From the NCBI RefSeq assembly GCF_056746865.1, contig NZ_JBWKMP010000003.1: a stretch of 64,000 bases of DNA; one strand, given 5' to 3'. Position numbers and translations under genes: made by a program. A model generated the notes under the pieces. The model saw only the letters and a list, made by a program, of their open reading frames with translations, searched no databases and was not told the DNA's origin. Source of the stretch: a plasmid. This document shows positions 38,229 through 53,421 of this stretch, one piece after another; within the stretch, counting starts at the first letter, position 1, and every line of letters begins with the position of its first letter.

Positions 38229-38607
38229 AAATATTGGAACCATATAGTTCACGTAGTTTATCCGCTACTGAAGATACGGGGATTTCACCAGTTGCAGCCC
38301 CCACCGCAAGTTCCACCAGCACGGGAGAATCATATACCTGTATACCGTTACGGCGTAGAAATAGCAGCGCACTGTTTAGCGCGGTACGCTTATTGGCATC
38401 ATTGAATATATGCCCTCTCGCTGTAGCCACCAGGTAGGTGGCGGAGACTTCGAAAAGGTCGGTGATCTCTTCGTAGGCAACTCTGGCCTGAACTCTCCCG
38501 ATAATGGCCTCTGCCCTGCCCGGATCTGACATGCCAGGCAGGCCGCCGTAGCGGCTTATATTCGCATCATGAAGCGCAATAAGTTCTTCCGGTGATATAT
38601 GCCTCAT
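38227..38607 (-). CDS. doc: Doc toxin (Fic-fold kinase)
   Basis: 126 aa with Fic motif HIFNDANKR. Matches my recollection of P1 Doc. Overlaps the phd stop. Confidence 0.95.
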
Positions 38608-38828
38608 TATCGGTTAACCAGTTCCTTGTTGGTGGAGTCCAGGGTGTCAAACAGGGATGCAAATTCAGCATCCAGCGCCGCTTTTTTGTAGGCTTCGAAA
38701 GTAGCCTTGCTGACAATTACTGCTGGCTCACGGCCTCTGCGGGTGATTTCAACCTCTTCCCCGGCTTCAACATTGTTGAGCACTTCAGAAAGGTTGCCAC
38801 GCGCGGTACGGAAGTTAATGGATTGCAT
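38607..38828 (-). CDS. phd: Phd antitoxin
   Basis: [49 protein letters not shown].. equals P1 Phd (73 aa) as I remember it. The palindrome GTGTACAC lies upstream. Confidence 0.95.
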
Positions 38829-38900
38829 AAACACCTCGTGTACTCGTTATGTGTACACAATTATAAACTTCACAGGCATAAAGCACCAGCACTTTGCAGC

Positions 38901-39290
38901 TTAAATAACCGGACAATCATCAAATTCCCCACTTCGGGCATCATTGATGACATGAGTGATCACACCAAAAACAGCATTACTGCCCGTGTATCCATCGTCA
39001 TCTACTGGTAACGCCTCTTTCTTCCCGGTGCTTAAGTCCTCCAGGTGCTGGCGCGGATACTTCCTGTATCTCTTTATGCGATATTCACCCTCCATAGCGC
39101 ACACAAGCAGAGAACCATCAACCGGAGTAAGCGAGGAATCAACCACCAGCAAAGCACCCTGCAATATTCCCTCACGGTGATGGCTATCAGCTGCCCGCAT
39201 GAAGTAGGTCGCTGAAGGATGTCTAATTATCTGCTGATCAAGAGAAATTCGGCTTTCAACATAATCCGCCGCAGGAGAAGGGAAGCCCAT
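38901..39290 (-). CDS. humD: UmuD'-like protein HumD
   Basis: 129 aa S24 peptidase-fold C-terminal domain without the N-terminal cleavage segment, as P1 HumD. A LexA box lies upstream. Confidence 0.85.
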   Translation of the reverse strand: MGFPSPAADYVESRISLDQQIIRHPSATYFMRAADSHHREGILQGALLVVDSSLTPVDGSLLVCAMEGEYRIKRYRKYPRQHLEDLSTGKKEALPVDDDGYTGSNAVFGVITHVINDARSGEFDDCPVI

Positions 39291-39308
39291 AGCGTTTTAC
39301 CTCAATGA

Positions 39309-39328
39309 TACTGTTTATTCATACAGTA
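39309..39328. promoter_or_regulatory. LexA (SOS) box TACTGTTTATTCATACAGTA
   Basis: Perfect CTGT-N8-ACAG palindrome 19 nt upstream of humD. Confidence 0.85.
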
Positions 39329-39413
39329 TACATTGAAAAGGCATAGTTTGTGAAAGCGGGGTTTGTAGGCGCGCCACGCTGGGGGCTAATCACATTTCTC
39401 CCCCATCTTGCCG

Positions 39414-48332: not shown

Positions 48333-49019
48333 TTACGGCTGGCCTCCCTTCACCTGCTTTAGCGTCAGATTTCCGCAAAAAACCGCGCCAGTGTCTATGT
48401 AGTGCTGGTTCCAGAAAGATTTCGGGCTGTTTACTGGCGTATGCCCGAAAATAAAGCTATCTGCACCAGTGATCATTCCACCAACACCATCAACCGCGTC
48501 ATAAAATCGCTCACGCCGCCAGGTAACATTGAGATCGCTAACAGGTTTACCAAACTGGTATTCGTTATCAGGATAGTCGGCATGGGCTATAACGATAGTT
48601 TCATGCCCGGTGTTCAACTCAATGATATAGGGTAAACGTCTTACCAGCTCCACCAGCGCCCTGGCTAATATTTCCCGATCAGCGTCCAGCATGAAGAACC
48701 ATTGGCCGCCATTCATTAGCCAGTTATTCACGTTGCCTGCGGGGCTTAACGCATCGATCATTAATCGCTCGTGGTTTCCCATAACCGACCGAAACCAGGG
48801 CATCTGCAATAGCTCCAAGCATTCAACATTTTCGGTGCCGCGATCGATAAGGTCGCCAACCGATATCAGTAAATCCTGTGTCGGGTCAAAGTCCACACGA
48901 TGAAGTTCAGACATCAATCTGGTGTAGCAACCATGCAGATCACCAACAACCCATATGTTTCTGTAGCCTGAACCATCAATACGGCCATATAAATTCACTT
49001 CATGCAGCGCCTGGGTCAT
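48333..49019 (-). CDS. Ser/Thr protein phosphatase (lambda PP / PrpA-like metallophosphoesterase)
   Basis: Motifs GDLHGC, GDLIDRG and GNHE. ATG at 49019 overlaps the upstream stop (ATGA). Confidence 0.85.
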
Positions 49020-49327
49020 GCGGCAACCTTCTCCCGCAGCCAGATACAAACCGGGCCATCTTCAGTGTCATGAATAGAGCCAACAAACCATCCTTCGCCC
49101 TCTGGTCGCTCTGGTTCCCAGGCGGCAATATCGGGACCATCTGCGTCCAGATTAAAATGATCTTCATCCATACTGCGAATAGTCCACTGAAGATTATTAT
49201 CCTTCATCCAGGCGTCAAATTCCTCAGTGGATATATATTCACGACCTGCGCAAAACTTTTCATATTCCGGATGTGTCCAGCAGCCATATTCATCACGTTC
49301 TACCGGCATTTCTTTAATGATGCTCAC
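49016..49327 (-). CDS. Hypothetical acidic protein
   Basis: 103 aa, coupled on both sides. Confidence 0.65.
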
Positions 49328-49548
49328 TCTTCATCCTCCAAGTCGGCAACGGCCTCCATCACATCAGAACCGCGAATAACCTCAAAAGCACGGCAGGCCA
49401 TTTCAAACACCTGTTGTTCTTGCGGATGCGGTGACTCCCAATACTTAAAACCAGGTCGATGCTCGTAACCCAACATGGAATAAAAATCGCCAGCAAGTTC
49501 AATCGCTGCATCAACAAGTTCGCGATTTGTCATCGTCTGTTCTGTCAT
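49324..49548 (-). CDS. Hypothetical protein
   Basis: 74 aa, coupled on both sides. Confidence 0.65.
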   Translation of the reverse strand: MTEQTMTNRELVDAAIELAGDFYSMLGYEHRPGFKYWESPHPQEQQVFEMACRAFEVIRGSDVMEAVADLEDEE

Positions 49549-49820
49549 TTTGTTTTCTCCTGTCTGAACATCACTATCATCAGGTCGCCTTTTGTCGCTA
49601 TCCTGGCTGTTGTACCTGGTTCAATGCGGCTAAGCTCAAATGCGTCATAGAACGCTTCTAATGCCTTCTGGCGTAGTTCCTGTTTGCGCCGTTTTTTCCA
49701 CTGTTTTAGGAAAATGGAACCCAGCCATCGCCATGTACGGGACATGATGTAAAGCCAACCGAGAAGTGCCAGACCGGTATTTAGGAGCGTATCGATCGTT
49801 ATTGTCGTGTCGATATTCAC
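49545..49820 (-). CDS. Small membrane protein
   Basis: 91 aa. TM helix LLNTGLALLGWLYIM followed by a basic stretch. Confidence 0.65.
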   Translation of the reverse strand: MNIDTTITIDTLLNTGLALLGWLYIMSRTWRWLGSIFLKQWKKRRKQELRQKALEAFYDAFELSRIEPGTTARIATKGDLMIVMFRQEKTK

Positions 49821-50533
49821 TGGCTGCCTCCTTTGCGAAGCTGGTCGGCGAACAAACGTACACTAGACGCTTCACTGCGTAGAAACTTAACGGCATAATC
49901 AAAACCACCTCGTTCTGCGTCGTCTGCTCCGTTGTCGAGGTTATCTGCGTACATCTCTACCCCCTGCGCACGTACTTCAGCCAGGAAAGCATCGGTGGCT
50001 GGGGTATCAACACGGATACTGTCGCGCAAGATGAAAAATGCATTGAGCATTCCAGTCTCTGGCACTTCATCCTGATGCTTCTCATACGCATCAAGAGCCT
50101 TCATCATCTCAGCTCCGAATGGTTGAGGGTGCACAGACTTCAGCTCCGCATTCTCCGCCGCCAGCACCGCGCGTTCGCTCTCCAGTTCTGTAATGCGCCG
50201 TCTTGCAGCATCCAGTTCAATCGACAATTTTCCCAACTGCTCTTTATGCTTCTTGTATTCCTGATATGCGTGCCAAGACTGACCTTTGCGCACACTATCC
50301 GTGATATCAGTAATCTGTTCTGGTGTTAGCGTGGTCAGTGGCTGTGCTGGGAAAATCAGCACTTTCCCAGCATCCCAATCAAAACCCACCTGAATTGACT
50401 GAACCTCAACTGATGGTGTTGAACCGATGCGACCAGGCGAATGAACAACGATCGTTACATCCATATCGCGACGATGGCTGTGGTTGTTGGACAAAATACG
50501 ATTCACCAACTCCGAGAATTTGGAAAATTTCAT
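49817..50533 (-). CDS. Ead/Ea22-like protein
   Basis: ATG at 50533 (ATGA overlap). Contains [13 protein letters not shown] and ends [10 protein letters not shown]. Confidence 0.75.
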
Positions 50534-50853
50534 GCTGATTCCCTTTGCTCTTCCTGGATAATGTTGTTGCAATCTTTCACGCACTCGTTGCAGATGAAAA
50601 CGTTGTCCCCGGCAATTAACTTTTTAACGGTGTGCTGGGATTTGTTGCAGAAGCTGCAATAAAGCGTTGGACTGGCTGATATGGATGGTGCGCCAGATGT
50701 CAGCCGCGCGATGTCGTTCTTGCGACGCAATATCACACGGCTGCACTCGACCAGCATCTCCGGGGATATATCCTCCTCCGTGGCGAGCGCCTCCAGACGT
50801 TCGAGCAAGCGAAATACTTTTTCCTGGGTGATTGCAGAATGCGATGTGGTCAT
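50530..50853 (-). CDS. Protein with C-terminal ClpX-type zinc-binding domain (ZBD)
   Basis: [39 protein letters not shown] versus the E. coli ClpX N-terminus [39 protein letters not shown]. ATG at 50853 behind SD GGAGAG. Confidence 0.8.
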
Positions 50854-50854
50854 C

Positions 50855-51505
50855 TCACTCTCCTTTGATGCGAATGCCAGCGGCACGGGAGTCATTCCAT
50901 CGCTTTACTTCTTCACGAATTACGTCAATGCATTCTTTCGAATCCATTAGGTAATCTTCATCAAAAAGCCTTTCCTGTTCGTTTTCTATCGCAACAATGA
51001 TTGCTTCAACTAACTTTTGTGCCTGAGAACCACTTTCTAACTCTGCAATGCGCTTCTCTGCGGCTTCCAGCTTCTCGCGCATATCGTCAACGTACTCGAC
51101 CAGAGATCCGCCAGCAGGAATTTCGCACTCCTCGACCAGTTGGAAGTAGATATCAGCTGCGGCCCGTGTGTTGCTATGCCTAGCGTCGCCCATCTCACCT
51201 TCACGAAGAGCATCGCGTTCGGCGGTAAGATTGGCTATTTTGCTGTCTTTGCCTTCAAGCTCAACGCGCAGCTTCCCTACCGTTAGCGCAATATCCTCGT
51301 TCTCCTGGTCGCGGCGTTTTATGTATTGCTGGTTTCTTTCCCGTTCATCCAGCAGCGCCAGCACAATGTGTGGCGTTATCAAGGACTCAAATTCGGCAAC
51401 AGCTTGCTCACCTCGCTTGTAATTCTTAATCCCACCTAAATCTTTCGCGTTCTGTGCCGCCTCACGCAGCGCCAGTGTGTCGATGTCGATGTCGATGTTG
51501 CTCAT
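50855..51505 (-). CDS. Ead/Ea22-like coiled-coil protein
   Basis: ATG at 51505 (ATGA overlap). [12 protein letters not shown]. Shares [36 protein letters not shown] with 43941-44693. Confidence 0.75.
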
Positions 51506-51735
51506 TGTGCCTCCTCGATTTCGTCCCATTCCACCCAGGCATTCTCTCCATCAGCATCGATTTCACCTTTGTGACCGCATTTGGAACAAACGGCCTCATC
51601 ACCCGCCCACAAAGAATCTTTGGTTACCGACCATCCTGTTACCCTGGCTTTGCCGTGCTGGCACCTAGGGCAATCATCAAGCCATTCGACTTCGACCGTT
51701 GAAGGACCAAATCCATGTTCAGTTCGGATGCTCAT
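51502..51735 (-). CDS. Zinc-ribbon protein
   Basis: 77 aa with CPRC..(19)..CSKC. ATGA overlap at the start. Confidence 0.65.
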   Translation of the reverse strand: MSIRTEHGFGPSTVEVEWLDDCPRCQHGKARVTGWSVTKDSLWAGDEAVCSKCGHKGEIDADGENAWVEWDEIEEAQ

Positions 51736-52235
51736 GACTGAACTCCTTTGCGAATCTGTTCCGCCCATTCTTCAAGGGATTTCTCCGCATATTCACCGGA
51801 CAGGCCATCAATCGGATGCGGTTCATTAGCCAACTCTTCTTTCGCTGACAAAATCATGCGTGTAACGTCGAAAACTTCACGCAAAGACTTATTGATAAAT
51901 CCGTGATTGAACGCAGCAGCAAGACGGCTTGCGGTGTAGTTAATCCCCTCGTTGCGTGCCTCCGCACGTATTTCAGCCAGGAAAGCGTCGGTGGCTGACA
52001 TATTTCCTGTTGCCTTCATGGCCTTCAAAATAACCAGAACGCCATCTTGCCCAACCAACTCGGAGATAATCTCAGTGTTGTCGCCAACAACCTCACAGAA
52101 TGCCTGAACAGCTTTACGAGCAAGTGCATTCTCCGCCGCCAGCGCCGCGCGCTCTTTCTCAAGTCGGGAAATTTCCGTTACATACTCAGCGTTACGCTCT
52201 GCCAGTTGTGCGGGCGTTAAACCTTCAGACTTCAT
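51732..52235 (-). CDS. Ead/Ea22-like protein
   Basis: 167 aa. TDAFLAEIRAEARNEG, ends AEQIRKGVQS. Confidence 0.75.
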   Translation of the reverse strand: MKSEGLTPAQLAERNAEYVTEISRLEKERAALAAENALARKAVQAFCEVVGDNTEIISELVGQDGVLVILKAMKATGNMSATDAFLAEIRAEARNEGINYTASRLAAAFNHGFINKSLREVFDVTRMILSAKEELANEPHPIDGLSGEYAEKSLEEWAEQIRKGVQS

Positions 52236-52542
52236 GCACTCTCCTTTCGAAATAAACGTACTGATTAATCATGCCCAGGGGCATTTCGAACTTTTCTGCG
52301 ATCTCACGGCGGGGAACGCCACACTGATGAAGCTGCCGCGCCAGCTCTATATCGCTCTGCCGGTATTTGGCTGACTGGTGAAAGTCACCTTTCAGAATCA
52401 TGCTGATCCGCAATTGCCGCGCTTTAGTCCTGACAGCACCACCGGTACGCCCGATCAGTCTCCCAATACCCTCGACTGTCATAGTCCCGGCGCACTGGCG
52501 GAGTATCATGATTTCTGCCCTTCCCCATCCCCGCCAGCTCAC
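52225..52542 (-). CDS. Small HTH protein (GTG start)
   Basis: 105 aa with two HTH-like segments (MTVEGIGRLIGRTGGAVRTKARQL; VPRREIAEKFEMPLGMINQYV). Confidence 0.65.
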   Translation of the reverse strand: MSWRGWGRAEIMILRQCAGTMTVEGIGRLIGRTGGAVRTKARQLRISMILKGDFHQSAKYRQSDIELARQLHQCGVPRREIAEKFEMPLGMINQYVYFERRVHEV

Positions 52543-53150
52543 GCAGAACTCCTTCTAACCAAAAGAACGCCATCTTCAGAAACAACGTTGCAGGACTTCA
52601 GGTAATTCATTGCCTCTTTCGGTAATGGATTCTTTGGATCGGCGCTTGCCAGGGATTTCGATAACCTCATGATAAATTTGATCATTACCTTCTGACGGAG
52701 CTTGTGCTCATGGGATGCAGACAGGTAATAGGAAATGGTATGGGCTAAACGCTCACGAAGCTGTTCTGTGCCGTGATATACAGCAGCGATATCACGCAGT
52801 GCATTGACCAGTTCCCGGTAAATATGCGGAGCAACCTGGCATTCAATGTTGGTTGGTGACTCATAAATTACATTCAGCCCCAGCTTTTGAGCCAGCTCGT
52901 GCTCTGCACGAGCGCCAACTGATTCCTCCCACCCCTTGAGCAAATAGACCGCATTAGCCGAACGCACCATTGCAAGGCAAATATCCATGTATTCGCTCTG
53001 GCAGAGGCCAGCAGGTAACAGCGCCGGATTCAGAACAATATGCCCTACCTCCATCAGCTCTTTTGCTTTCGAAAAAAACGCTGTGCGGTTGTAGTCGGGA
53101 TAACCAGTCATCGGACCCGCGATGTAAATTTTCATAATGCGTTTTGACAT
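52539..53150 (-). CDS. DUF4406 / nucleoside 2-deoxyribosyltransferase-like protein
   Basis: MKIYIAGPMTGYPDYNR..GWEESVGARAEHELA is the DUF4406 pattern. The C-terminal half shares a module with 39980-40615. ATG at 53150. Confidence 0.75.
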   Translation of the reverse strand: MSKRIMKIYIAGPMTGYPDYNRTAFFSKAKELMEVGHIVLNPALLPAGLCQSEYMDICLAMVRSANAVYLLKGWEESVGARAEHELAQKLGLNVIYESPTNIECQVAPHIYRELVNALRDIAAVYHGTEQLRERLAHTISYYLSASHEHKLRQKVMIKFIMRLSKSLASADPKNPLPKEAMNYLKSCNVVSEDGVLLVRRSSA

Positions 53151-53302
53151 CAAAGTTTCCCCAGGAACGTTACGCAAAAGTTAATGAGAGCAAAGAGTTC
53201 AATGCCCAGCTCAAACAACGCCAGGACAGTGAAAAACAGGGCATATAGCAACCCAATTTCTGTACCGGATTGCTGGTGGATTGCACTTATTGCGACAAGC
53301 AT
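53150..53302 (-). CDS. Candidate 50-aa membrane peptide, first gene of the leftward operon (below track cutoff)
   Basis: SD AGGAGG. MLVAISAIHQQSGTEIGLLYALFFTVLALFELGIELFALINFCVTFLGKL. TGATG overlap with the next gene. Confidence 0.45.
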   Translation of the reverse strand: MLVAISAIHQQSGTEIGLLYALFFTVLALFELGIELFALINFCVTFLGKL

Positions 53303-53346
53303 CATGACCTCCTGATATAGCGTCTGAAAAAAGTATCTTCATTTTG

Positions 53347-53376
53347 TGTTAGAAAATCAATTTTGATTTTCTAACA
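53347..53376. promoter_or_regulatory. Perfect palindromic operator pair TGTTAGAAAATCAA-tt-TTGATTTTCTAACA
   Basis: Lies in the divergent control region between the leftward operon and ref. In P1, ref is C1-controlled. Confidence 0.7.
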
Positions 53377-53421
53377 CTTTTGATCAACCATAGCGGCGAT
53401 GTAGACAAACCGGGTATTTCT

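Follow-up and report, generated by a model that had tools for sequence, protein, structure and literature searches.

A small gene in the stretch of plasmid DNA analysed here, 64,000 nucleotides of contig NZ_JBWKMP010000003.1 (RefSeq assembly GCF_056746865.1; hereafter the window), encodes a 107-amino-acid protein that carries a complete ClpX zinc-binding domain (ZBD) without the AAA+ motor, fused to an orphan helical domain. In the host, SspB, RssB and other adaptors dock on the ZBD (PMC7804408). We tentatively read the phage protein as a motor-less mimic that would titrate ZBD clients away from ClpXP, and consider this reading possible rather than probable. The domain annotation is already public, RefSeq naming the protein 'ClpX C4-type zinc finger protein', and the functional hypothesis is the only new part.

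A complete ClpX zinc-binding domain without a motor

Residues 64–102, exactly the 39-residue string singled out in the initial annotation and followed in the protein by QRESA, form the ClpX-type domain. The Pfam profile zf-C4_ClpX (PF06689) matches residues 65–101 over profile positions 2–39 of 39, i.e., the whole domain, with E = 9.8e-18 and 64.2 bits against a gathering cutoff of 27 bits, and the similarity does not weaken upon alignment: identity to the E. coli ClpX ZBD, initially put at about two-thirds, is 28/39 or 72% when counted from the phmmer alignment, slightly above that claim. Among all PDB sequences, phmmer finds ClpX ZBD entries as the only significant matches, with those of E. 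coli (1ovx, E = 1e-15; 2ds5, E = 4e-15) ahead of the weaker Listeria (4e-10) and Neisseria (3e-8) ClpX entries.

All four zinc-ligand cysteines are present, as the initial annotation had held: C66, C69, C88 and C91, spaced CxxC-x18-CxxC, align to ClpX C14, C17, C36 and C39 and are invariant in 23 sequences. A fifth conserved Cys, F68, K77, I80, G82 and I87 do not vary across the phage family or the sampled N-termini of genuine ClpX, E. coli ClpX has the same hairpin strand residues (K-L-I-A-G, V and I), and the ClpX pocket residues F16 and I46 have their counterparts in F68 (invariant) and I98 (I, V or L in the family). An AlphaFold2 model built from 17 family members has a mean predicted local distance difference test (pLDDT) score of 79, with 83–87 over the ZBD, and predicts the zinc knuckle, β-hairpin and C-terminal helix of a treble-clef-type fold. 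With this predicted model as the query, Foldseek returns 2ds6, 2ds8 and 1ovx at a probability of 1.00, with a root-mean-square deviation of 1.9 Å and 71% identity over 38 columns for 2ds6 and 2ds8.

The motor is missing. The NCBIfam ClpX equivalog models NF003745 and TIGR00382 match the protein only at model positions 5–50, with 47.5 bits for a cutoff of 359 and 43.6 bits for a cutoff of 371 (below 50 where more than 350 are called for), and no AAA+ module is found with them. The initial annotation was thus correct in describing a ZBD attached to an unrelated N-terminal domain in place of a motor, the N-terminal part being an orphan hairpin.

An orphan hairpin and a conserved two-domain unit

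The N-terminal domain is predicted with pLDDT > 90 for residues 11–50, and no Pfam or PDB relative of residues 10–52 was found. A ribbon-helix-helix DNA-binding domain, considered for this half of the protein, finds no support from profile or fold. A phmmer search with residues 1–60 against 1.84 billion representative proteins gives nine matches: the intact ones all combine the hairpin with a ZBD, and the remainder are low-complexity repeats or copies with a truncation or frameshift. A free-standing N-domain is rejected on this count, and because every intact match carries the ZBD, the two-domain arrangement is a conserved unit. Thirty-seven columns are invariant in the alignment of 17 family sequences.

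The protein belongs to phrog_6797 (E = 1.5e-56, residues 1–106 on profile positions 1–106 of 107), a family whose function is unassigned in PHROGs. Its relatives in phages D6 (NC_050154, 3986–4306) and P88 (4932–5264), along with many nr entries, bear the name 'carboxylate--amine ligase'; PF06689 is the only domain detected and there is no ligase domain, so that the name is a propagated annotation artefact. Full-text literature searches found no experimental paper on the phrog_6797 protein or on any phage stand-alone ZBD.

Distribution and evolution

Of 5,426 complete E. coli genomes, 108 contain close copies of the gene, in 103 cases on a plasmid. A sensitive blastn search (word size 11) of the same genomes with the 136 nt that code for the ZBD finds relatives in 194, including about 100 chromosomal places. 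The family is thus present in ~2–4% of complete E. coli genomes, mostly on phage-plasmids. In P2-like prophages and phage P88 the replication endonuclease and ParM-like genes lie ahead of it and the portal gene comes after; both domains of the window protein are present in these copies, at 52% identity over residues 8–102 (E = 2e-36). The third setting is a different integrated prophage with an Ea22/DUF4752/Ant region. No conserved partner gene is found across the D6-like plasmids, the P2-like prophages and this other prophage type, and since the neighbours differ in each setting, the function should be self-contained and aimed at something common to all hosts. A distant homologue (P0020) is known from contigs of only ~2.5 kb, which are uninformative about its neighbours.

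The same blastn search returns phage and plasmid copies only, without any DNA match to clpX itself. The domain was therefore not recently copied, and recent capture from host clpX is rejected. At the protein level the ZBD is 72% identical to host ClpX in the D6-type branch and 79% (31/39) in the P2-type branch, and between these branches the hairpin domain has only ~47% identity; a host-like ZBD in both branches, together with the lack of a DNA match to clpX, argues that the protein sequence has been maintained rather than recently copied. Pairwise ratios of nonsynonymous to synonymous substitution rates (dN/dS) among three close relatives are 0.4–0.7 overall and 0.3–0.6 in the hairpin half, all from small counts, which indicates selection that is purifying but not stringent.

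These data bear directly on whether the gene is a decaying, functionless fragment of a captured host clpX. Its shortness, its place in a mosaic accessory region and the moderate dN/dS would fit decay, but the DNA does not resemble E. coli clpX, the domain stands at the C-terminus instead of the N-terminus, and its in-frame fusion to a conserved partner domain persists across branches that are only 52% identical. In addition, the frame is intact, with a good Shine-Dalgarno sequence and translational coupling, the ligands are invariant, and the gene is found in 108–194 complete genomes. We give decay next to no credence: conservation effectively refutes it already.

A possible mimic of the ClpX docking platform

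In E. coli, the choice of substrates by ClpXP leans heavily on the ZBD, with SspB/ssrA, RssB/σS, UmuD/D', λ O and MuA as cases. Degradation of λ O requires the ClpX ZBD, in which F16 and I46 line a hydrophobic side pocket that is used by trigger factor (TF) and overlaps the λ O site; the TF effect depends on both residues, that site is also bound by SspB and RssB, and in the ClpX hexamer the ZBDs form a trimer of dimers, which keeps their local concentration high (PMC7804408). The isolated E. coli ZBD dimerises, as seen by cross-linking, and when added in trans at 5–20 μM inhibits RssB-mediated degradation of σS by ClpXP; a common docking site on RssB has been proposed for IraD and the ClpX ZBD (PMC7226468). 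XB-containing SspB peptides bind the isolated ZBD with a Kd of 35–82 nM (PMC12373786).

By analogy with these in vitro results, the initial proposal that a free ZBD could act as a decoy has a precedent, and F68 and I98 are kept. In the mechanism that we favour, the C-terminal half of this small cytoplasmic protein would fold as a Zn-bound ClpX ZBD, would probably dimerise like the host domain, and would present the hydrophobic side pocket and the β-hairpin edge to ClpX adaptors and ZBD-dependent substrates; candidate clients are the SspB XB tail, RssB, UmuD, λ-O-type and MuA-type proteins, and TF. Lacking an AAA+ motor, the protein would be a competitive mimic, binding clients and keeping them off ClpXP. 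Adaptor- or ZBD-dependent proteolysis would be selectively damped, and substrates recognised by the pore, such as ssrA tags, would be left untouched. The N-terminal hairpin may provide a second oligomerisation interface, with bivalent avidity for dimeric adaptors, or specificity for one client. Since the gene resides in accessory or early operons of three temperate-phage lineages, the protein would presumably be made in lytic development and act on a host-encoded partner.

Support for mimicry comes from the complete ZBD with all ligands and a matching fold, from the retention of F68, I98 and the hairpin residues, and from the isolated host domain, which inhibits RssB/σS turnover in trans and binds XB at nanomolar Kd. 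The need of λ O degradation for the ZBD, the maintained host-like ZBD sequence, the overall purifying selection and the stand-alone ZBDs of other phages also speak for it. A host target is also supported by the movement of the gene between D6-like plasmids, P2-like prophages and the other prophage type without a conserved neighbour.

Several observations weigh against a simple mimic. In the D6-type branch, Pro31, universal in ClpX and kept in the P2-type branch, is replaced by Asp or Glu (AGP to AG[DE]), and the allele in this window is an outlier, with K93-D94 at the position of ClpX D41-L42 where most relatives have [DE][VAL]; the change places an Asp one helical turn from the I46-equivalent residue and could alter pocket specificity. 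In the ZBD half dN/dS is 0.5–0.9 (small counts), and strict mimicry predicts otherwise. Free host ZBD is needed at 5–20 μM against 0.6 μM ClpXP (PMC7226468), so that a simple decoy would require high expression. Finally, the invariant orphan N-domain argues that the protein does something that a bare decoy need not. In another reading, the ZBD would be only a generic zinc-ribbon dimerisation or oligomerisation module and the hairpin the functional part of a regulator unrelated to ClpXP, e.g., a small DNA- or protein-binding factor; we allow this a small but appreciable chance.

Rather unlikely, in our view, is a plug-in adaptor: the phage ZBD would form a mixed dimer with a ZBD protomer of ClpX or dock on the ClpX ring, and the hairpin, placed atop the hexamer, would block the pore or recruit proteins of the phage's choice for degradation. 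The high identity to the host ZBD, which extends to most residues of the helix and the hairpin, is in keeping with such pairing, and the conserved second domain could serve as a recruitment module. Wojtyra et al. reportedly described the ZBD in 2003 as the dimerisation element of ClpX. This role, and the cross-linked ZBD dimers (PMC7226468), would also allow the phage domain to pair with the host one, but exchange with ZBDs that are already at high local concentration in a trimer of dimers would presumably be unfavourable, and the K93-D94 and D83 substitutions may disturb the dimer interface. Some toxin-antitoxin(-chaperone) defences are set off when ClpXP degrades the antitoxin (bioRxiv 10.1101/2024.02.24.581848). 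A long shot is that the protein is a viral plug-in for ClpXP whose ZBD inserts into ClpX or docks onto it and whose orphan N-domain sends host proteins, such as defence or stress regulators, to destruction or, less radically, that stand-alone ZBD mimics are a general but hitherto overlooked phage strategy against adaptor-dependent ClpXP proteolysis, ClpXP-triggered toxin-antitoxin defences included. A plug-in would be the bacterial-virus counterpart of the eukaryotic viral adaptors that hijack the host degradation machinery.

A link to plasmid addiction had been suggested at the outset, and phd is indeed encoded in the window (Table 1). Phd is said to be a ClpXP substrate on the evidence of Lehnherr and Yarmolinsky in 1995. 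Together, these two points would suit a dedicated modulator of the P1-type Phd/Doc addiction that stabilises Phd against ClpXP. The link is not supported: the ZBD gene lies 12 kb from phd/doc, in another operon; the two-domain homologues in P2-like and other integrated prophages have no phd/doc annotated in the 9–12 kb of flanking sequence shown; and a Phd stabiliser made in lysogens would be expected to weaken post-segregational killing. A dedicated modulator is thus very improbable, and stabilisation of Phd is possible as a side effect at most.

Mimicry of the docking domain remains the reading that we would pursue: it is plausible, has in vitro precedent and is testable by existing ClpXP assays. 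If true, it would provide a genetic means of selectively blocking just the adaptor-dependent part of ClpXP proteolysis; if the protein has no effect on ClpXP, it is simply another small accessory gene.

The gene and its genomic context

An upstream ATG would extend the open reading frame (ORF) of the ZBD protein to 121 codons. The 107-codon start is preferred because an AAGGAG lies 6 nt upstream, because it falls 1 nt after the stop of the Ea22-like ORF 50855–51529, and because most homologues start with MTTSHSA. The TGA of that upstream ORF (50855–50857) sits between the AAGGAG and the ATG of the ZBD gene. At the other end of the ZBD gene, its TGA and the ATG (50533) of the following ORF overlap in the sequence ATGA, which places the gene in a string of small, translationally coupled genes.

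The window is a D6-like relative of the P1 phage-plasmid. Its best plasmid matches are E. coli plasmids of 90–94 kb, and a structural-gene stretch of it is matched only by phage D6, at 86%. Phage-plasmids have been reported as carriers of resistance genes. The accessory operon that contains the ZBD gene (Table 1) begins with a small hydrophobic ORF, followed by a DUF4406 gene, a D5-like regulator fragment and several Ea22-like mosaic ORFs; after the ZBD gene come an Ea22-like gene, a DUF4752 gene, two small ORFs and a NinI/Ppp-like phosphatase gene. The first ORF encodes a hydrophobic peptide of ~50 residues (MMLVAISAIHQQSGTEIGLLYALFFTVLALFELGIELFALINFCVTFLGKL), probably a small membrane protein, and its stop overlaps the start of the DUF4406 gene. 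The Ea22-like ORFs that flank the ZBD gene match PHROGs 368, 492 and 614 and share short modules (a coiled-coil ...ERA.LAAENA... and ATDAFLAE[VI]RA...); as repeats, these modules could be recombination points that move the cassette between phages. Membership in a defence system is rejected: PADLOC defence models assign no family to the ZBD protein and its nine neighbours (10 proteins).

The divergent region between the operon and a ref-like gene holds a perfect palindrome (Table 1). The 14-nt motif TAATTTTCTAACAC, counted at up to two mismatches to TGATTTTCTAACAC, is present in 10 copies in the window where 0.58 are expected, a count that none of 100 shuffles attains; one of the copies forms the palindrome. 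The motif is probably the operator of the D6-like element's own repressor, or a phage-specific promoter element. In P1, ref is under C1 control. The P1 C1 operator consensus ATTGCTCTAATAAATTT was considered and rejected, with no matches in the window at up to three mismatches. Because the operon starts beside the palindrome, which faces the ref-like gene, and because the ZBD gene comes after gene A in P2-like phages, the arrangement suggests that it would be expressed during lytic development.

The window Phd is 100% identical to what we take to be the P1 Phd sequence, and doc, on the same assumption, 94%. Together with phd and doc stands a diverged humD/umuD'-like gene (38%). Since in E. coli the proteins of the UmuD type depend on the ZBD as clients of ClpXP, HumD is another conceivable client of the phage ZBD.

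Table 1. Positions of the ZBD gene, its parts and related features in the window
Feature	Position	Strand	Remarks
Two-domain ZBD gene	50530..50853	minus	complete ORF, 107 amino acids and stop; phrog_6797 member
ClpX-type ZBD	50548..50664	minus	residues 64–102
Zn ligands	C66 50656–50658; C69 50647–50649; C88 50590–50592; C91 50581–50583	minus	
Low-confidence Ser/Ala/Pro-rich linker	50665..50697	minus	residues 53–63; pLDDT ~61; length varies in the family
N-terminal orphan domain	50698..50826	minus	residues 10–52; predicted helical hairpin, helices 10–26 and 31–52
Shine-Dalgarno AAGGAG	50860..50865	minus	6 nt upstream of ATG at 50853; read directly
Ea22-like mosaic ORFs	49817–50533; 50855–51529; 51732–52235	minus	flank the ZBD gene
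Accessory operon with ZBD gene	48333..53311	minus	~5 kb; starts and stops overlap or abut
First operon ORF	53158–53311	minus	probable small membrane protein
Perfect 14+4+14 palindrome (GTGTTAGAAAATCA ATTT TGATTTTCTAACAC)	53346..53377		divergent region between ZBD operon and ref-like gene
Further motif copies	11288, 24695, 24713, 24845, 28398, 34236, 48270, 53995		
phd, doc and humD/umuD'-like gene together	38236–39359	minus	
phd	38610–38828	minus	12 kb from ZBD gene; other transcription unit
doc	38236–38607	minus	other transcription unit than ZBD gene

Comparison with known systems

The closest known relative is the host ClpX ZBD, with which the phage domain shares the CxxC-x18-CxxC ligands, the fifth Cys, the β-hairpin and C-terminal helix, 72% identity, and the residues corresponding to F16 and I46. 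By contrast, the phage ZBD is C-terminal, is preceded by the orphan hairpin, and lacks the following linker and AAA+ motor; it also differs at Pro31 (Asp) and, in this allele, at D41-L42 (K-D). The isolated ClpX ZBD used as a competitor (PMC7226468; PMC12373786) has the activity that we propose for the phage protein: it is motor-less, binds adaptors and inhibits ClpXP in trans. The former is a laboratory construct, whereas the latter is a natural protein with an extra domain and diverged surface positions.

Other phages also encode a ZBD without AAA+, e.g., Caulobacter phage Cr30 gp170 (41 amino acids, 1600–1725) and the Pseudomonas phage PP9W2 'Clp protease' (BFVD A0A9E7CCK4, 65 amino acids), and phrog_12435 and phrog_5259 are further stand-alone phage ZBD families. 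All are uncharacterised; they differ from the window protein in lacking the N-terminal hairpin, in belonging to other PHROG families and in their hosts. The presence of stand-alone ZBDs in unrelated phages raises the chance that they have biological meaning. A metagenomic protein (P0025, 145 amino acids) has two tandem ZBD copies without an AAA+ module, and jumbo phages (Bacillus phage G gp257/gp258, PA5oct-like phages and Atu_ph07) carry full ClpX, which in phage G lies beside a ClpP-like gene.

Small proteins that shield selected substrates from an AAA+ protease offer a functional parallel: the anti-adaptors IraP, IraD and IraM, λ RexB, and T4 PinA and T7 Gp4.5, the last two of which act against Lon. 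RexB, the product of an anti-cell-death gene of λ, reportedly blocks the ClpP-dependent decay of λ O, Phd and MazE. These proteins have no sequence or fold relationship to the phage ZBD protein, and none of them is known to use the mechanism proposed here, mimicry of the protease's own docking domain; if the proposal is true, the temperate phages that encode such a motor-less ZBD would be the first viruses to mimic the docking domain of a bacterial AAA+ protease.
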